The notes: a model not told the origin generated them from the letters alone. A DNA stretch of 52,849 bases from a virus (IMGVR_UViG_3300045988_151019), one strand, 5' to 3'. Shown: positions 1 to 41,200, counted from the first letter of the stretch. A program made the numbers and translations.

Positions 1-518
1 CCATCCGAGATAACACCTTCGTAATACTCACGCTGCTCGTTGAGTTTTGATTTTGCGGCTTCCAGCGCCGCAACCAATTCGTCTACAGTTCCGGCAGCTT
101 GCAGTGCGTAATCGGTAATAGACATCTCATGATCAATTTCAGTACCGTTCTCATTAGTTGAGGTGATAGCAAAAAAATCAGAGTCGATTTCGTTATCAGC
201 TAAGTGGCGTAGCGTATCGGCAACAAGCTGACCGTTTTCGATTAACAGCTTCCCTACCGTTAGCGCAATATCCTCGTTCTCCTGGTCGCGAGATTTGATG
301 TATTGCTGGTTTCTTTCCCGTTCATCCAGTAGCGCCAGCACGGTTTCTGGTCCGGCCAGAATTTTGAAGGCGTTGAGCGCATCAATATCAACACCGCTAT
401 CTTTAAGTTCCTGCTCGCTTATCAGATCATCATCAACTGGCAACATTAACAGGCGTTCCATTGCCGGAATTGCACGCTCTGCCGCCTCACGCAGTGCCTG
501 ATAGTTAATTTTGGTCAT
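1..518 (-). CDS. Ea22-like modular phage protein, N-terminal part (gene runs off window start)
   Basis: ATG at 518-516, one nt after upstream stop; N-terminus MTKINYQALREAAE matches paralogue at 1783-2481; reading frame open to position 1. Confidence 0.45.
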   Translation of the reverse strand, partial: MTKINYQALREAAERAIPAMERLLMLPVDDDLISEQELKDSGVDIDALNAFKILAGPETVLALLDERERNQQYIKSRDQENEDIALTVGKLLIENGQLVADTLRHLADNEIDSDFFAITSTNENGTEIDHEMSITDYALQAAGTVDELVAALEAAKSKLNEQREYYEGVISD

Positions 519-519
519 A

Positions 520-819
520 TCACATCACCCTGAATCCGTTGCATTTACGTAAAAAATCGCAGATATAGCCCTTCATTTTTTCGTGCCAATCTCGATCATT
601 CCCATTGCACCAACCATCAGGTGGAGTCCAGTTTTCTATCAGAGCAGCCATTTTCTTTGCTTTCGCCGGAGTAGCTGTTGCGGTATCGCAGTAATGACGA
701 GTGTCAACCAACGTATCCATACCATCGATATCAAGTACGCAAAACCATGTGTGATTCGGCATTTCAACAGATGGTATTTGTTGCCCACGTCGACGTTTAT
801 CAATAAGACATACAGTCAC
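520..819 (-). CDS. hypothetical Cys-rich protein (99 aa)
   Basis: ORF track; GTG start overlaps upstream stop (GTGA), AGGAGG 7 nt upstream inside junction cassette. Confidence 0.4.
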   Translation of the reverse strand: MTVCLIDKRRRGQQIPSVEMPNHTWFCVLDIDGMDTLVDTRHYCDTATATPAKAKKMAALIENWTPPDGWCNGNDRDWHEKMKGYICDFLRKCNGFRVM

Positions 820-1499
820 TGGTTGCCTCCTTTGCGAAGCTGTTCAGCAATACTTACGCATATCTCTGCGCCTCTAATCAGCCCCGGAACGTTCTTGTTT
901 GGCCCAACTTCACCATCGACAAAATCAATCATCGCGTTACGAGCCATATCCACGCCCTGCGCACGCACTTCAGCCAGGAAAGCATCGGTGGCTGGCGTTT
1001 CCCGTGAACGGTAAGACCAAACAATGTCGTCTGTTTCACTGGGTTCTTCATGAGAGCAATTTGGGCAGACAGCAGTACAACCAGCATGATCTTCTATGAG
1101 CATCTTCAGCCACGAGTTCTCCTCCGCCAGCGTCACGCGACTGGCCTCCAGTTCTGCTACGCGCTGTTTTGCAGCATCCAGTTCAATCGACAATTTTTCC
1201 AACTGCTCTTGATGCTTCTTGTATTCCTGATATGCGTGCCAAGACTGACCTTTGCGCACACTATCAGTGATATCAGTAATCTGTTCTGGTGTTAGCGTGG
1301 TCAGTGGCTGTGATGGGAAAATAAGCACTTTCCCGGAATCCCAATCAAAACCAGCGTGAATTGACTGAACCTCAACTGAAGGTGTTGAACCAATGCTGCC
1401 AGGCGAATGAACAACGATTGTTACATCCATATCGCGACGATGGCTGTGGTTGTTGGACAAAATACGATTCACCAACTCAGAAAATTTGGAAAATTTCAT
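816..1499 (-). CDS. Ea22-like modular protein (227 aa)
   Basis: ORF track; C-terminal module ETPATDAFLAEVRAQG...IAEQLRKGGNQ shared with 1783-2481; coiled-coil middle; CxxC motif. Confidence 0.5.
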   Translation of the reverse strand: MKFSKFSELVNRILSNNHSHRRDMDVTIVVHSPGSIGSTPSVEVQSIHAGFDWDSGKVLIFPSQPLTTLTPEQITDITDSVRKGQSWHAYQEYKKHQEQLEKLSIELDAAKQRVAELEASRVTLAEENSWLKMLIEDHAGCTAVCPNCSHEEPSETDDIVWSYRSRETPATDAFLAEVRAQGVDMARNAMIDFVDGEVGPNKNVPGLIRGAEICVSIAEQLRKGGNQ

Positions 1500-1819
1500 G
1501 CTGATTCCCCTTTCTCTGCTCTCTCCTGTCGGAACATCACTATCATCAGGTCGCCTTTTGTCGCTATCCTGGCTGTTGTACCTGGTTCAATGCGGCTAAG
1601 CTCAAATGCGTCATAGAACGCTTCTAATGCCTTCTGGCGTAGTTCCTGTTTGCGCCGTTTTTTCCACTGTTTTAGGAAAATGGAACCCAGCCATCGCCAT
1701 GTACGGGACATGATGTAAAGCCAACCGAGAAGTGCCAGACCGGTATTTAGGAGCGTATCGATCGTTATTGTCGTGTCGATATTCACTGGCTGCTTCCTTT
1801 GCGAATCTGTTCCGCCCAT
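1496..1819 (-). CDS. small membrane protein (likely GTG start near 1786)
   Basis: ORF track; hydrophobic helix GLALLGWLYIM; ATGA overlap with downstream gene; SD-like AAGGAAG before GTG. Confidence 0.35.
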   Translation of the reverse strand: MGGTDSQRKQPVNIDTTITIDTLLNTGLALLGWLYIMSRTWRWLGSIFLKQWKKRRKQELRQKALEAFYDAFELSRIEPGTTARIATKGDLMIVMFRQERAEKGESA

Positions 1820-2481
1820 TCTTCAAGGGATTTCTCCGCATATTCACCAGACAGGCCATCAATCGGATGCGCTTCATTAGCCAACTCTTCTTTCGCTGAC
1901 AAAATCATGCGTGTAACGTCGAAAACTTCACGCAAAGACTTATTGATAAATCCGTGATTGAACGCAGCAGCAAGACGGCTGGCGGTATAGTTAATCCCCT
2001 CGTTGCGTGCTTCCGCACGAATTTCAGCCAGAAAAGCATCGGTAGCTGGAGTTTCGCTGTGGTGCAGGGCATCGTTGATAATCATTGCAGCAACTCCGGC
2101 CTGCCCTGCATCCGTGACCGACACATGCTCAAGAGTTACGGCCATTGCGTGTTTCAGCCCGGCGTTCTCTGCCACCAGCGCCGCGAGATTAGTCTCAAGC
2201 TCTGCAATTCGACACATAGCATCAATATTTGTGTCCTCCAGGCACTTAATTTCACCAAGCAGCTCCAGTGCAACCTTTGGGTTGAACGCGGCAACATGAC
2301 GAGCGTTGTTCTCTGCATTTTTCTGTCCATCAAAGCCGGTCCATTTGATAACGTCTTCACATCGTTCATCACCGGGCGTGTGCACCGCATAAGTACCAGT
2401 ATCCGTCGAAATAAATGCGACCCATTCGTCTGGTGTTGCCTTTTCTGCCGCCTCACGCAGTACCTGATAGTTAATTGTCAT
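1783..2481 (-). CDS. Ea22-like modular protein (about 232 aa)
   Basis: ORF track 1783-2490; ATG at 2481 overlaps upstream stop (ATGA); N-terminus MTINYQVLREAAEKATPDEW; C-terminus EQIRKGSSQ. Confidence 0.5.
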   Translation of the reverse strand: MTINYQVLREAAEKATPDEWVAFISTDTGTYAVHTPGDERCEDVIKWTGFDGQKNAENNARHVAAFNPKVALELLGEIKCLEDTNIDAMCRIAELETNLAALVAENAGLKHAMAVTLEHVSVTDAGQAGVAAMIINDALHHSETPATDAFLAEIRAEARNEGINYTASRLAAAFNHGFINKSLREVFDVTRMILSAKEELANEAHPIDGLSGEYAEKSLEEWAEQIRKGSSQ

Positions 2482-3158
2482 TCTCGCCATCCTTCACAGT
2501 TGTAATCACTACAGCCTTCAAAATCATATGGGCTGTACTGCCAGGTAATTTTTCCGCAATGCGGACAATTCCAACGCACCTTCCCGCTTCGCGACTTCTT
2601 TCTTCTGTTCTGCTTTTTCAACCAGTCAGGCATGACCAAACCTGCGCCCTGAACCATTGTTCTGCGGTTAAAGTTATTGATATTGAACGTCCGGCGCTTT
2701 GCTGAATCAGCAATGGAAAATGGCAACCAAACTATTCCTGGTTCGTTTTTGTTGGCGACGCTAAAGATGGTCGCTTTACTGAAGTCATCTGTTGGCAATC
2801 CACCGTGTTGAAGCCAGTAAACATCGTTGCCGTTCCAGCTACCTTTTTTGTAGGCCACATACGCAGTGCAATCTGACTCAATCAGGCTTTCTGTAGGGAT
2901 GTACTGGCAATCAACGTGCCACACAGCCATTGCATCCACGCTATCAGCGCAAACAGGCTGATCGATATCTCGTCCACAATTCCAGGCTTTTTGGGCTTCT
3001 TCCAGCGTGTAAACATGAGCGCGATCGATATCAGAACTGTAACCATTGCCGTTATGGCAATGGAATGAGGCGTTATTACCCACAGTTTCACGCAAGCACA
3101 TCATGTAAAAACGGTTACTCACTGGTTGCCTCCTTGGCGGAGTTGCGCTGCGATGCAT
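2478..3158 (-). CDS. zinc-ribbon protein (C-terminal CPHCG...CSDYNC); probable true start GTG at 3122
   Basis: ORF track; AGGAGG then GTG inside junction cassette; Cys/His-rich. Confidence 0.4.
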   Translation of the reverse strand: MHRSATPPRRQPVSNRFYMMCLRETVGNNASFHCHNGNGYSSDIDRAHVYTLEEAQKAWNCGRDIDQPVCADSVDAMAVWHVDCQYIPTESLIESDCTAYVAYKKGSWNGNDVYWLQHGGLPTDDFSKATIFSVANKNEPGIVWLPFSIADSAKRRTFNINNFNRRTMVQGAGLVMPDWLKKQNRRKKSRSGKVRWNCPHCGKITWQYSPYDFEGCSDYNCEGWRE

Positions 3159-3358
3159 GAAAAAAAAGACTCCCGAGTGTGACAGTTAAGAGCTGGTGCG
3201 AACGCCGCGTTAAGAACGGCGGCATCACAGCCGTCATCAATATAGAGCGCAATTTTTTTCTCCAGGCGCGCTTTGGCTTCCTGCAGCTGCATACCCCGGC
3301 ACGCACGCGGGATATAATCAGCAATTTGAGCGATAGCTTTTTCGTTCTGTTTAAACAT
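3119..3358 (-). CDS. small protein carrying the Ea22-like C-terminal tail (AAQLRQGGNQ); possible remnant module
   Basis: ORF track; third copy of junction cassette at its 3' end. Confidence 0.4.
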   Translation of the reverse strand: MFKQNEKAIAQIADYIPRACRGMQLQEAKARLEKKIALYIDDGCDAAVLNAAFAPALNCHTRESFFSCIAAQLRQGGNQ

Positions 3359-3554
3359 GCTTCACCTCGATAGGCTTGATGGTGTCTAACAGCAGTCGAC
3401 GGCGCGTATTTTCTGCAAAGTGGCGGCGTCCGGTATCTTTGTGGTAAAACTCATTTTTGCCGACGACCCACATCCGCTCTGTTTGGTGCAGTTTTTTTAC
3501 CTTCGGGCCATCTTTGGTGATCACGGTACCGGTATGGGTTTTTACGATTGTCAT
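3351..3554 (-). CDS. hypothetical small basic protein (67 aa)
   Basis: ORF track; ATGA overlap with upstream PAPS-reductase-like gene. Confidence 0.35.
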   Translation of the reverse strand: MTIVKTHTGTVITKDGPKVKKLHQTERMWVVGKNEFYHKDTGRRHFAENTRRRLLLDTIKPIEVKHV

Positions 3555-4429
3555 TCCACTACCTCTTCGAATTTCAACTCCAATTGGTCACCCCAGATTT
3601 CACATGATTCGGAACACGAACCAGTATCAAACCGCTTGGCCAGCACCATCGCCTGATACAAATTTCTGTAGTCACTGTCGGCATACATTCTGGCAATCCC
3701 GTCAAGCGTCAGGTGGCCACGGTACATAACGTCTTTACCTGTTCTGCGATGACCATCCCTGACGTGTTTGCCTGTAACCAGTTCATTAAAAACCCGCATC
3801 AGACCTGGTTCGTCTTTACATGCAAGCCCCAGCTTTTGCGTTGACTTTTTGATGCAAAAAACACAGTTCCCGAGGTGCTCCGGGATTTGCAAATCAAAAG
3901 GTTGTTTTCGCCACCACCGGATAACATCCGACTTATCAAAATCTGACAGTTCGGCAAGATACCGGACGCCCGGTTTCGGTTTCAGCCTACGGGGTTCGTC
4001 CGCACGAATACCGAGCCATGTGATGTAATTCCCTCGCCCAAAATGGTCATCGCAATATTTCGTGAAAGGGGTGAGTTTTAGCCTGTCGGTACAGAACGCG
4101 CCGCCGATGTATGGCGTACCGTACTTTTTAACCATGTCCATAAACGGTTTAAGCACCGGCATTCGCGTCTGAATATCCTTTGGTTCCCATTCCGTATAAC
4201 CATTTGGCTGCCCAAGTTCTGGATTTATATCGACCTGCAACACCGTTAGCGGTACGTTCCAGAACTTCACAACCTCACGAATAAAGCGATACGTCAGAGG
4301 ATGTTCACAGCCGGTATCCATAAAAATGAAATGGACGCTAGCGCCAGCTTTTCGCTGTGCTTCCATCAGATGAACGAGATAAGCCGATGTTCGTCCACCT
4401 GAAAAGCTGACGACTTGATGCATACTCAC
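3551..4429 (-). CDS. PAPS reductase-like (PP-loop ATP pyrophosphatase family) protein
   Basis: N-terminal SFSGGRTSAY PP-loop motif; C-terminal Cys cluster (NCVFC, CSESC); 292 aa. Confidence 0.7.
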   Translation of the reverse strand: MSMHQVVSFSGGRTSAYLVHLMEAQRKAGASVHFIFMDTGCEHPLTYRFIREVVKFWNVPLTVLQVDINPELGQPNGYTEWEPKDIQTRMPVLKPFMDMVKKYGTPYIGGAFCTDRLKLTPFTKYCDDHFGRGNYITWLGIRADEPRRLKPKPGVRYLAELSDFDKSDVIRWWRKQPFDLQIPEHLGNCVFCIKKSTQKLGLACKDEPGLMRVFNELVTGKHVRDGHRRTGKDVMYRGHLTLDGIARMYADSDYRNLYQAMVLAKRFDTGSCSESCEIWGDQLELKFEEVVE

Positions 4430-4432
4430 GGT

Positions 4433-5011
4433 TTATTCCTGAATGCGCTTAAACTCGATTACCCATACCAACGGGTTAGATAGCCAGTTATCCTGCCCGT
4501 AAATACTGCGCCAGATATCACCAAAACCAACGCGATAAACAGCTTCAGATGGCGTAATCTTGTACGTCGCCGGAGTTGCGCCTTCTGCTTTAGCATCTGC
4601 CTCGCTCATGTCATGCAGCCGTTCCACACGCACGTCGGTAATTTCCAGAAGAATGCGCGATGCCCAGCGCGGCATGTGAATTGATGGCGTCCACTTTTCT
4701 GATACTGGTTTATTACAAACCTCGACCGGAACCCGGTGCGTTTGTTCTGTCCAGGAGTTACGCACGCTTGCGCGATAAACCAGCGTTGCGACGTCCGTCG
4801 CTTTGCCATGTACCCGGTAGGTTTCGCGAACCCAAATACGATCGCCCGGTTGACCATATGGACAATGCTTAGCAAGCAACTCTGCGGCCACTGCCCGTCC
4901 ATAGAATTTTTCTTCAACAATCCTGCGAGTCTGTGTTTTATTCCCGCCAAGAATTGCCCGGACCATCTCATCGTTGAAAATCATGCCGCGCTCTTTCACT
5001 TCGCCTTTCAT
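4433..5011 (-). CDS. ASCH-domain protein
   Basis: ILGGNKTQTRR motif typical of ASCH/PUA-like fold; 4 nt after upstream gene; GGGGGA SD. Confidence 0.55.
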   Translation of the reverse strand: MKGEVKERGMIFNDEMVRAILGGNKTQTRRIVEEKFYGRAVAAELLAKHCPYGQPGDRIWVRETYRVHGKATDVATLVYRASVRNSWTEQTHRVPVEVCNKPVSEKWTPSIHMPRWASRILLEITDVRVERLHDMSEADAKAEGATPATYKITPSEAVYRVGFGDIWRSIYGQDNWLSNPLVWVIEFKRIQE

Positions 5012-5189
5012 GCATCCCCCTTACCCATGCGCGACGATGCCGCCAAAAGTGATAGAGAACAGCCAGAAATAGATCGCGGCCATAATGATTTTGAATGCCG
5101 TGTTCATATTTTCAGCTCCTGTGATTGATTGGATACATGCCGCGCCTTGCGGCATGTTTTTATTTTCACTTTCTCTGTTTTAAAAATCA

Positions 5190-5206
5190 AGATTTATTAG
5201 AGCAAT
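5190..5206 (-). promoter_or_regulatory. C1-repressor-type operator motif (plus strand AGATTTATTAGAGCAAT)
   Basis: 16/17 match to consensus ATTGCTCTAATAAATTT as I recall it; lies between two leftward genes. Confidence 0.55.
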
Positions 5207-29304: not shown

Positions 29305-30501
29305 ATGAGTGATTCCAGCCAGCTTCACAAGGTTGCTCAAAGAGCAAACAGAATGCTCAATGTTCTGACTGAACAAGTACAGTTGCAAAAGGATGAGCTA
29401 CACGCGAACGAGTTTTACCAGGTCTATGCGAAAGCGGCACTGGCAAAATTGCCTCTACTGACTCGAGCGAACGTTGACTATGCCGTAAGTGAAATGGAAG
29501 AAAAGGGCTATGTTTTCGATAAACGCCCTGCTGGCTCTTCAATGAAATATGCGATGTCAATTCAGAACATCATTGACATATATGAACATCGCGGAGTGCC
29601 AAAATACCGGGATCGCTACAGCGAAGCGTATGTGATTTTCATCTCCAATCTTAAAGGCGGTGTGTCAAAAACTGTATCGACGGTTTCTCTGGCGCATGCA
29701 ATGCGTGCCCACCCTCATCTTCTGATGGAAGATTTAAGGATTCTGGTTATTGACCTTGATCCTCAATCTTCAGCAACGATGTTTTTAAGCCATAAACACT
29801 CTATTGGTATCGTAAACGCAACATCTGCACAGGCTATGTTGCAGAATGTAAGCCGTGAAGAGCTGTTAGAGGAGTTTATTGTTCCTTCTGTTGTACCTGG
29901 GGTTGACGTTATGCCTGCGTCGATTGACGATGCCTTTATTGCATCCGATTGGAGAGAGCTGTGCAATGAGCATCTACCGGGTCAGAACATCCATGCTGTC
30001 CTGAAAGAAAATGTGATTGATAAGCTGAAGAGCGATTATGACTTTATCCTCGTTGATAGTGGTCCTCACCTTGACGCCTTCCTGAAAAATGCTTTGGCCT
30101 CGGCCAATATACTGTTTACACCTCTGCCGCCAGCAACTGTCGATTTCCACTCATCGCTTAAATACGTTGCCCGCCTTCCTGAGTTGGTGAAACTCATTTC
30201 GGATGAAGGCTGCGAGTGCCAGCTTGCGACTAACATTGGTTTTATGTCCAAGTTGAGTAACAAGGCAGATCATAAGTATTGCCATAGCTTGGCTAAAGAA
30301 GTGTTCGGTGGGGATATGCTCGATGTCGTCCTCCCTCGCCTTGACGGTTTTGAACGTTGCGGCGAGTCTTTTGACACTGTTATTTCAGCTAACCCGGCAA
30401 CGTATGTTGGTAGTGCTGATGCATTGAAGAACGCGCGAATTGCCGCGGAAGATTTTGCTAAAGCAGTTTTTGACCGTATTGAATTTATCAGATCTAACTG
30501 A
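29305..30501 (+). CDS. parA: partition ATPase ParA (type Ia, with N-terminal DNA-binding extension)
   Basis: 398 aa; deviant Walker A KGGVSKT; Walker B ILVIDLDPQ. Confidence 0.9.
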   Translation: MSDSSQLHKVAQRANRMLNVLTEQVQLQKDELHANEFYQVYAKAALAKLPLLTRANVDYAVSEMEEKGYVFDKRPAGSSMKYAMSIQNIIDIYEHRGVPKYRDRYSEAYVIFISNLKGGVSKTVSTVSLAHAMRAHPHLLMEDLRILVIDLDPQSSATMFLSHKHSIGIVNATSAQAMLQNVSREELLEEFIVPSVVPGVDVMPASIDDAFIASDWRELCNEHLPGQNIHAVLKENVIDKLKSDYDFILVDSGPHLDAFLKNALASANILFTPLPPATVDFHSSLKYVARLPELVKLISDEGCECQLATNIGFMSKLSNKADHKYCHSLAKEVFGGDMLDVVLPRLDGFERCGESFDTVISANPATYVGSADALKNARIAAEDFAKAVFDRIEFIRSN

Positions 30502-37181: not shown

Positions 37182-37337
37182 TTACCTTTCAGATTCGTAG
37201 GCTGTGAAGACAGTGACCTCCGTCTGGCTGGTTCGGATTCGTACCTCGCAGAGGTCTTTCCTCGTTACCAGTGCCGTCACAATGACGGTTAAACAGATGA
37301 CGATCAGAGCGATTAACATCGCTTTTTGCTGCTTCAT
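37182..37337 (-). CDS. hok: Hok/Gef-family type I toxin (51 aa)
   Basis: MKQQKAMLIALIVICLTVIVTALVTRKDLCEVRIRTSQTEVTVFTAYESER, near-identical to chromosomal HokC/Gef and HokD/RelF as I recall them. Confidence 0.85.
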   Translation of the reverse strand: MKQQKAMLIALIVICLTVIVTALVTRKDLCEVRIRTSQTEVTVFTAYESER

Positions 37338-37395
37338 AGCCTGCTTCTCCTTGACCTTTTGGTCGGTAAGAGGCTAATCTACGTATGCTAAGCAT
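37189..37395 (-). CDS. mok: Mok-like overlapping reading frame (modulation of killing)
   Basis: 68-aa ORF overlapping hok in another frame, as in hok/mok/sok loci. Confidence 0.5.
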   Translation of the reverse strand: MLSIRRLASYRPKGQGEAGYEAAKSDVNRSDRHLFNRHCDGTGNEERPLRGTNPNQPDGGHCLHSLRI

Positions 37396-37450
37396 AGATA
37401 TGGCCTCAGATTAATGTTAAGCGTCTTGCAGGACGCGTAATGTTATCTGG
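37349..37450 (+). ncRNA. putative Sok-like antisense RNA and its promoter (boundaries approximate)
   Basis: Plus-strand TTGACC-18 nt-TAATCT promoter at 37349-37377, antisense to the mok start region. Confidence 0.3.
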
Positions 37451-37518
37451 GGCTTTCTTCTATCTGCTTTTCGGGTAATGCCTGAAGCAGATAGCCTCAA
37501 GCACCCGCAACGATTGTA

Positions 37519-40909: not shown

Positions 40910-41200
40910 TTACGGCCTCGTAAGTTGATAAACAACCTGCGACCCGCTGCTAAACAGGTGGCAGGACGTGACGGGGTTAGCAGACTGGCACTTACGAAAC
41001 CAGCAGGCCGAAGCCTCCCCATCACGCCCCACCATAATTCGGGCGTAACGTGGTTTACGGACACAAAAATACCGCAATATCGGAAATCTGCGGTTGTCCG
41101 CGTAAGTATTCAGGCTGCTAAACCCGGTCGCAGAATTTGCTACGACGGCGGAACTATAAGCCTGAACGATTAAAAGGTCAATATGATGCGAAAAGATAGC
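40910..41200 (-). ncRNA. immI leader region expected to hold the c4 antisense RNA and its target repeats (boundaries not resolved)
   Basis: No protein-coding signal; repeated GCTGCTAAAC at 40946 and 41113; sits between operator and icd. Confidence 0.3.

Follow-up and report, generated by a model that had tools for sequence, protein, structure and literature searches.

Why should neighbouring genes whose intervening segments cannot be aligned share the same short beginnings and ends? The question is raised by positions 1-3358 of a viral DNA stretch of 52,849 nucleotides (nt) (IMGVR_UViG_3300045988_151019), referred to here at its full length as the window, in which three leftward genes related to ea22 of phage lambda (A, B and C) lie among small genes (X, Y, D and E; Table 1). 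A sequence-only reading had taken four of these genes for an array of Ea22-like paralogues built from shuffled N- and C-terminal protein modules. From the analysis reported here we consider it probable that the region is a mosaic early operon in which short linkers separate variable cassettes, that one of these linkers, the 3' tail box, is dual-coded, and that the linkers act as recombination points. The pattern is that of known lambdoid and P1 mosaicism, ordinary phage mosaicism and no new biological system; what is particular here is that intragenic linkers shuffle protein domains and that the intergenic linker doubles as a translation-initiation region.

Shared boxes

A direct-repeat search of 1-3358 returned exactly three similarities, and they lie where the sequence-only reading had placed shared termini: an N-terminal box (N-box) in A and C, a box encoding TPATDAFLAE (TPATD box) in B and C, and a 3' tail box, of which the three copies (36 nt, 81 % to the reference copy) all sit exactly on stop codons. 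Protein alignments likewise bore out significant sharing of these termini, with 31.6 % identity between A and C over 117 amino acids (aa; E = 1.4e-4), 37.8 % between B and C over 90 aa (E = 2.6e-7) and, between B and E, similarity over the last 11 aa only, 9 of them identical. An origin of the similarities in chance or low-complexity matches has a negligible probability. In a binomial estimate (p = 0.25 per base, ~6.5 million position pairs, 3.6 kb) the expectation per pair is ~1e-11 for the N-box, ~1e-10 for the TPATD box and ~2e-5 for the tail, and hundreds of loci have the boxes at the corresponding places in their genes.

The N-box is kept in 84 distinct genes of viral loci. The TPATD box, compared across 68 distinct genes, is a ~50-nt island of DNA conservation with sharp edges; third codon positions are conserved at 0.72-0.93 over the first nine codons, equal to first and second positions, and conservation has fallen to the background level within 9 nt upstream.

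The tail box as a probable translation-initiation region

The coding strand of the tail reads CGC AAA GGA GGC AAC CAG TGA (R-K-G-G-N-Q-stop) and holds AAGGAGG, followed after 6 nt by a GTG whose last two bases open the TGA stop codon. The three tail boxes of the region have the form aaggaggcaacca-GTG-A, with the variant aaaggaagcagcca, and their GTG is the start codon of X, Y and D, respectively. These starts (GTG 1786 for Y, GTG 3122 for D), together with that of C at 2481 in an ATGA overlap with D, replace longer open reading frames (ORFs) with wrong starts: the longer Y ORF matches its PHROG profile only from residue 12 and the longer D ORF only from residue 13, and the PGAP annotation of a sister plasmid starts X, Y and D at the same GTGs. 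Annotation should therefore place the starts of Y and D at GTGs within the upstream gene and should not label E as Ea22-like.

Viral contigs were scanned with the 21-nt tail box, which yielded at least 120 loci with 124 instances, a sample selected for the tail. The internal GTG opens a frame with a median length of 161 aa in these loci, and at least six unrelated upstream families bearing the tail, four of six not Ea22-like, are found in many combinations with 10 families of downstream genes. For 82 of 119 instances the gene that follows is Ea22-like too, beginning M-S-E-I-N-Y-Q-A-L-R-E-A-A-E, and there the tail box and N-box form one contiguous conserved junction of ~70 nt. Genes of the E type with the tail also occur in other phages (cluster u4).

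An independent sample of newly fetched loci, drawn by the TPATD box, comprised 58 distinct genes. A GTGA or ATGA overlap ends the gene in 51 of the 58, and all 51 have a Shine-Dalgarno (SD)-like hexamer 6-11 nt upstream, at 6-8 nt in 48; a frame of at least 50 aa is opened in 47 of the 51. The last three residues of the protein take 18 forms, among them GNQ, VRS, ADK and AAL. With the overlap, the SD and the spacing fixed and the last residues free, it is the initiation signal that is conserved and not the peptide. Codon usage can be set beside this: GGA encodes the Gly of the K-G pair in 147 of 148 tails, including all of the ~60 K-G-E-type tails, which lie outside the selection exerted by the search pattern, whereas in the bodies of these genes its share is 25 %. 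The view of the tail as a shared protein module consequently did not hold for its last six codons, of which the invariant part is an SD with an overlapping start found on several unrelated gene families.

The K-G-E tails read ...ATT CGC ATC AAA GGA GAG TGA nATG..., and ea22 of lambda itself ends ATC AAA GGA GAG TGA. All Ea22 proteins have been described as ending in an R/K-G-E motif of unexplained significance (Dydecka et al., PMC7093339 section 13). On the simplest reading of these sequences, the motif would be the SD sequence of the next cistron, and the puzzle of the R/K-G-E or R-K-G-G-N-Q C-terminus would gain a simple explanation, being largely the ribosome-binding site of the next gene. 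In lambda (NC_001416), TGAGATCGG follows the ea22 stop at 29820-29850, where relatives have TGA(T/G)ATG, and some relatives have a 7-codon ORF (MSRNTGL) at that position. Lambda appears, on this comparison, to have lost the downstream start codon, the SD-containing K-G-E tail being left as a vestige.

A start codon over or abutting the upstream stop, with an SD 5-10 nt upstream inside the ORF, is the geometry of coupled junctions, and it is found here. A ribosome ending the upstream gene could thereby restart on X, Y or D, and from the geometry we infer that translational coupling operates at these junctions. The role of the tail at the junction would also account for its presence on the unrelated gene E. 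If coupling is true, expression of the downstream gene should fall at least 5-10-fold with an early stop in the upstream gene or with a change of AAGGAGG to the AAAGGTGG type; in the design of Ea22 deletions or truncations, removal of the C-terminus would silence the downstream gene.

Several non-Ea22 cassette genes downstream of the tail box (d4, d3 and d7; loci L002-L121) end in tails of a similar kind (...KEGNQ*, ...SEQD* and ...SEQN*), and the junction logic may continue along their operons.

Two elaborations of the junction were rejected. A small hairpin that would sequester the SD is predicted at 796-866 and 3099-3169 on the minus strand, where the Leu-Arg codons CUUCG/CUCCG can pair with GGAG of the SD, but as a general feature it fails: it is present at two of the three junctions and absent from C-Y, its z score is -2.48 at the B-X junction and ~0 at the others, and families with TGG or TTG ahead of the box cannot form it. 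The Leu codon before the tail box is CTT in ~60 of 72 distinct Leu instances. For a programmed -1 frameshift fusing the upstream and downstream proteins, no canonical slippery heptamer was seen at the tail.

The boxes could instead be protein modules kept by protein-level selection, for instance to oligomerise, to bind a partner or to act as a C-terminal signal peptide, in a shuffled host-interaction or anti-defence family. We hold this to be unlikely, although part of the evidence favours it: the codons of the N-box and of the residues [FI]-A-[AE]-Q-[LI] just before the tail vary at the wobble position, which implies selection at the peptide level as well, the scaffold is consistent across thousands of homologues, and variable end domains with early expression fit a host-interaction role (PMC10834534). 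For the N-box and pre-tail linkers the module view thus stands in part, and these linkers are probably structural elements too, namely terminal helices of the scaffold. Against protein-level selection stand the 18 tripeptides that can follow K-G while the SD, the spacing and the NTGA overlap are fixed, the near-invariant GGA, and the presence of the tail on unrelated genes (E, u3, u5, u6); the defence-gene and literature searches described below gave a marginal LmuB match and no link to anti-defence; and the abrupt end of similarity at the boxes, described next, would be left unexplained.

Linkers as breakpoints of a mosaic

Positions 1-3700 of the window were compared by local blastn with the fetched lambdoid loci, the conserved Ea22 coil block at 236-356 being set aside. 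Of the 166 ends of high-scoring segment pairs (HSPs), 115 lie within 10 nt of seven boxes that make up 11 % of the sequence, and with only boxes that had not been used for locus selection the count is 63 of 114; 33 HSP ends fall at the N-box of A. The other ends cluster at gene starts and at 1104-1149, 2153-2195 and 2251-2289, these last three clusters corresponding to two further linkers (...LAAEN... and ...NPKVALELL...). The same upstream sequence is joined to different downstream sequences in 264 locus pairs and the reverse holds for 177, with similarity stopping at the box edges. The boxes thus show two marks of boundary sequences, unrelated flanks and a concentration of breakpoints, the latter being not tree-aware and drawn from non-independent samples.

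Close relatives give examples of such replacements. In the sister plasmid (L001), 67-245 and 851-1116 of the window are replaced; the tail box delimits the second replacement, inside which the TPATD island is kept. In P7 the order is window 246-338, N-box, 2445-3133, so that exactly the 1,966 base pairs (bp) holding C, Y, B and X between the two 33-nt N-boxes are missing. Alignments of close homologues of the C type (A1) and of the B type (A2) show alternative cassettes between constant linkers, with 2 N-domain, 3 middle, at least 6 C-terminal and several tail variants; one middle cassette, ELARKAVQEFCDVVGD..., is common to B-type and C-type genes.

Of 5,426 complete E. coli genomes, 2,961 hold pieces of the 3.56-kb region, which are spread over 5,353 chromosomal and 668 plasmid places, and segments have 93-100 % identical counterparts across different lambdoid prophages, ending at boxes. 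At least 80 % of the 3.56-kb arrangement is present in 7 of the 5,426 genomes, against 188 with the 25-kb backbone, which confirms the hypervariability proposed in the sequence-only reading. Its term paralogue array overstates duplication in place. Local tandem duplication followed by divergence, with the conserved ends as the slowest-evolving parts, would suit three Ea22-related genes in the same orientation within 2.5 kb, and full or partial duplications have been reported in the exo-xis regions of Stx phages (PMC8614690); it is nevertheless very improbable here, because 97 % identity of A and C over the 33-nt box against ~30 % aa identity elsewhere is incompatible with uniform divergence, because each segment has near-identical counterparts in different lambdoid prophages, and because the arrangement is so rare.

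The linkers are conserved as DNA across unrelated flanks, which marks them as probable sites at which recombination swaps sequence. Where P1-like and lambdoid phages or prophages reside together, homologous recombination would exchange cassettes at the linkers, and any cassette that entered would at once be read in the right frame and translated. It has been proposed that homologous recombination is focused on short conserved boundary sequences, a proposal cited in a passage of PMC3029335, and lambda Red recombines diverged sequences (PMC2327257). We infer from the sequence pattern that the boxes are maintained by recombination and not by selection alone. A site-specific recombinase or cassette-capture system with the boxes as its dedicated recognition sites, comparable to integron attC or a shufflon, would also produce sharp, short and widely conserved junctions with freely assorting flanks. 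For boxes of this kind such an origin is highly improbable: no recombinase gene is associated with the region in Pfam, NCBIfam, PHROG or the PGAP annotation, the boxes lack an inverted-repeat core, the RNA or DNA hairpin is confined to two of the three junctions, breakpoints are spread through the boxes and not at one position, and coding and translation signals fully explain the box contents.

Several points weigh against the mosaic-operon reading with linkers as recombination points. HSP ends and loci are not phylogenetically independent, which inflates the enrichment statistics; the tail box had served to choose the first set of loci; the DNA conservation of the boxes could stem from recent common descent and not from use in crossovers; the wobble variation noted above speaks for the peptide in the N-box and pre-tail residues; and the functional analogy to lambda Ea22, taken up below, is drawn from family membership only.

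A stronger proposition is that the junctions are selected plug-and-play linkers of a cassette-exchange system of P1-like and lambdoid phages, in which a unit of ~20-70 nt (tail box, start codon, N-box) would keep captured cassettes in frame and coupled. We regard this as distinctly unlikely. If true, such linkers would let an accessory repertoire, possibly for host interaction or counter-defence, turn over quickly, in a system integron-like in function and driven by general or phage recombinases. The mosaic-operon reading itself bears on the assembly of the 'dark-matter' accessory operons in temperate coliphages: with few linkers, domains and genes could pass between phage types as unlike as P1-like plasmids and lambdoid prophages and yet still be expressed.

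The Ea22-like proteins

Against the gathering cutoff of 27 bits for PF13935, A and C score well above and B and E have no Pfam match (E <= 0.01); B is tied to the family by phrog_368, which it shares with C, and by its identity to C. The assignment to Ea22-like proteins in the sequence-only reading therefore holds for A and C, extends to B as a related hybrid, and fails for E, which has the tail and nothing else in common with them, and its suggested family DUF550 had no match in any of the ten proteins searched with Pfam. Its description of the central regions as unrelated is right in that the segments between boxes cannot be aligned, and wrong in that A and C share a Pfam domain and B and C a coiled-coil region. 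C has 5,351 homologues, and those with names are called ead or Ea22-like; homologues of the B type number 2,193.

By their sequences, A, B and C are best described as mosaics on one scaffold, predicted to consist of an N-terminal helix, a small variable N-domain, a long central helix or coiled coil, the TPATDAFLAE helix, a variable C-terminal segment and the tail; the shared 'modules' would then be short conserved linkers between variable cassettes. C runs from the N-box through a small N-domain and helical centre to the TPATD box, a 75-aa variable C-terminal segment and the tail. B has a phrog_6026-type N-domain without the N-box, after which come a long helix in the centre, the TPATD box, a C-terminal segment that is short and variable, and the tail. 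Of A, 172 codons of the 5' part are seen, the window edge cutting the gene so that its C-terminus lies outside view; its likeness to lambda Ea22 lies in the N-box and the LLDERERNQQYIK...EDIALTVGKL coil. A segment of A at ~67-245 (~180 nt, ...LIENGQLVADTLRHLADNEIDSDFFAITSTNENGTEIDHEMSITDYALQAAGTVDELVAAL...) lies within the conserved Ea22 coil, occurs neither in lambda Ea22 nor in the closest sister plasmid, and suggests insertion of a domain at that point of the coiled coil.

AlphaFold2 models of B and C, of low confidence, have a long central helix flanked by small domains. The model of C (predicted local distance difference test, pLDDT, 40.8 from a 23-sequence alignment) is unusable, its helix 87-119 being of low confidence, and in that of B (pLDDT 59.0) the central helix 87-143 alone is confident (pLDDT 76-89). 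Poor consensus of AlphaFold and RoseTTAFold has been published for Ea22 (PMC8614690). Sequence searches of the PDB with B and C returned nothing meaningful.

Ea22 of lambda and Stx phages is early, non-essential, tetrameric and pro-lysogenic, and tripartite, a coiled coil in the centre lying between a variable N-terminus and a divergent C-terminal domain (PMC7093339, PMC10834534, PMC8614690). By analogy, A, B and C might tentatively be viewed as oligomeric coiled-coil adaptors whose variable ends bind host factors and bias a lysis-lysogeny or maintenance decision. An anti-defence role, which the sequence-only reading had suggested for such families, is possible and drew no support from the searches made: PADLOC, run on the Ea22-like genes and their small neighbours, had as its sole match a marginal LmuB coiled coil in B (E 0.0063), and a literature search for exo-xis, Ea22-like and PF13935 found no functional lead and no link to anti-defence.

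Genomic setting and gene content

The first 25 kb of the window are 98-99 % identical to P1-like plasmid prophages of E. coli, one such match being pOkiPb01715_3 (98 % coverage). The window also has an Rfam match to the P1 immI C4 antisense RNA with its targets, and 9 C1-operator-like sites against 0.34 expected; the guess of the sequence-only reading that this is a P1-like phage-plasmid is thereby substantiated. On the map the region lies after pap and before hot and humD.

Region 1-5200 is a variable, non-essential leftward early operon of the phage-plasmid, and its gene pool also fills the exo-xis/ea region of lambdoid phages. All genes of 1-5011 are leftward, on the minus strand. From the phosphoadenosine phosphosulfate (PAPS)-reductase-like gene through A, neighbouring genes either overlap by 4 or 8 nt or stand 1 nt apart (F and the PAPS-reductase-like gene overlap their downstream neighbours by 4 or 8 nt), a purine-rich SD-like stretch lies upstream at each of the 8 consecutive junctions in the junction table, and these genes are a single tightly packed polycistronic unit. 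The C1 operator upstream (Table 1) matches Op(hea), annotated in P7, and is the probable control point of the operon, which would probably be transcribed from a C1-repressed promoter at ~5190-5206. The 'hea operon' annotated in P7 occupies the same interval, is C1-controlled and includes Upf88.3, 'similar to Ead protein of P22'. In a genome-wide CRISPR interference screen of P1, ppp, just upstream of this operon, was non-essential, and lambda ea22 was likewise scored non-essential (PMC10695390).

Table 1 Coordinates of features in the window (- denotes the leftward strand)
Feature	Position	Strand	Description
A	1-518	-	Ead/Ea22-like; Pfam PF13935, 6.9e-28, 98.4 bits, residues 3-172
N-box of A	478-518	-	Start codon and INYQALREAAE; 478-510 repeats 2444-2476
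X	520-819	-	DUF7739, Pfam PF24881 at 1.5e-21; GTG start 819 within tail box of B
Tail box 1	816-851	-	IAEQLRKGGNQ*; AAGGAGG, 6-nt spacer, GTG of X over TGA
B	816-1499	-	Ea22-related hybrid; phrog_368 8e-61, phrog_6026 3.3e-54
TPATDAFLAE box of B	960-1001	-	42 nt, 88 % identical to 2014-2055
Y	1496-1786	-	DUF4752, predicted membrane protein; Pfam PF15944 at 2.4e-42
Tail box 2	1783-1818	-	WAEQIRKGSSQ*; AAAGGAAG, spacer, GTG of Y over TGA
C	1783-2481	-	Complete Ead/Ea22-like gene; Pfam PF13935, 1.1e-23, 84.8 bits, residues 2-154
TPATDAFLAE box of C	2014-2055	-	42 nt; 18 HSP ends
N-box of C	2444-2481	-	33-nt repeat of 478-510, 32/33 identical (97 %)
D	2478-3122	-	HK620 hkaG-like; phrog_2457 at 5e-119
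Tail box 3	3119-3154	-	IAAQLRQGGNQ*; AAGGAGG, spacer, GTG of D over TGA
E	3119-3358	-	79 aa, phrog_1344; not Ea22-like, tail junction only in common
F	3351-3554	-	phrog_1226
PAPS-reductase-like gene	3551-4423	-	PAPS_reduct; also SspD/DndC/BrxP-like
ASCH-domain gene	4433-5011	-	ASCH domain
C1 repressor operator	5190-5206	-	ATTGCTCTAATAAATCT, 1 mismatch; overlaps -10-like hexamer
Three phage-borne tRNA genes	18491-18566, 20567-20642, 20645-20720	-	

The label hkaG is carried by database matches of D (H20-H22). The C-terminus of D has a Cys-rich motif, CPHCGKITWQYSPYDFEGCSDYNCEGW, with the look of a zinc ribbon, and its homologue in P7 is annotated 'putative tyrosine protein phosphatase', a label unsupported by any Pfam model. 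NCBIfam gave no match for any small gene of the region. At the head of the operon the PAPS-reductase-like gene adjoins the ASCH-domain gene; in PADLOC the former matches SspD (1.8e-13) and, more weakly, BrxP and DndC, and the pair could serve a phage DNA- or RNA-modification or counter-defence function. A small ORF lies at 5021-5155 on the minus strand, between the C1 operator and the ASCH gene; read from the ATG at 5106 it encodes MNTAFKIIMAAIYFWLFSITFGGIVAHG, likely a single-pass membrane peptide, and a terminator-like hairpin is present at 5135-5157 on the opposite strand.

Other features of the window

Matches at 37332-37506, 40954-41039 and 41107-41159 correspond to sok RNA and to the P1 immI C4 antisense RNA with its a1/b1 targets, the sok antitoxin RNA of a hok/sok-type addiction module scoring 114.9 bits. 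The three tRNAs comprise Thr(UGU), Asn(GUU) and one with the anticodon CAU. ARAGORN assigns this last one to Met, but the corresponding gene of the sister plasmid has the annotation tRNA-Ile, which implies the lysidine-modified type.

Comparison with known systems

The closest relatives of the Ea22-like genes are Ea22 of lambda and Stx phages and Ead of P22, the family whose Pfam model A and C pass. A shares with lambda Ea22 the start MxxIN(Y/S)QALREAAE and the coil LLDERERNQQYIKxRDQENEDIALTVGKL, and common to both settings are the place in an early, non-essential, mosaic leftward operon and the SD-containing K-G-x C-terminal tail (the '+GE' motif); a tripartite architecture (variable N-terminus, central helix, variable C-terminal domain) is predicted here as well. 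The differences are that the operon here belongs to a P1-like plasmid prophage under C1 and not to a pL-driven exo-xis region, that three members are interleaved with unrelated small genes, that B has a phrog_6026-type domain instead of the N-box domain, and that neither B nor C has a C-terminal segment related to the solved C-terminal domain of lambda Ea22 (no PDB match).

P7, with its hea operon (upf86.8-upf88.3...), and P1, with its variable region upstream of hot, have their variable genes at the same map position, and the hea operon has the same C1 operator and both D-like and Ea22-like genes. The window differs from P7 by the added 1,966 bp between the two N-boxes, and P7 lacks the PAPS-reductase-like, F and E genes at this position.

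The modular theory of lambdoid phage mosaics is said to be due to Susskind and Botstein, and the idea of boundary sequences as recombination foci reportedly comes from the work of Clark and colleagues on HK620 in 2001, where seven boundary sequences, and a site-specific alternative, are said to have been put forward. As a homologue of HK620 hkaG, D places the region in the same gene pool as HK620. Like the lambdoid boundary sequences, the boxes are short conserved module borders with unrelated flanks; unlike them, several linkers lie within genes here (among them the N-box, LAAEN and TPATD) and so shuffle protein domains as well as genes, the intergenic linker coincides with a translation-initiation signal, and exchange spans P1-like and lambdoid phages.

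Coupled overlapping genes, with ATGA or GTGA and the SD inside the upstream ORF, are found in trpB-trpA and in many phage operons. The operon here resembles them throughout its length, with an SD 6-8 nt upstream of a start that lies over the preceding stop, and differs in that a junction of ~21 nt is reused on many unrelated gene pairs, as a portable linker.

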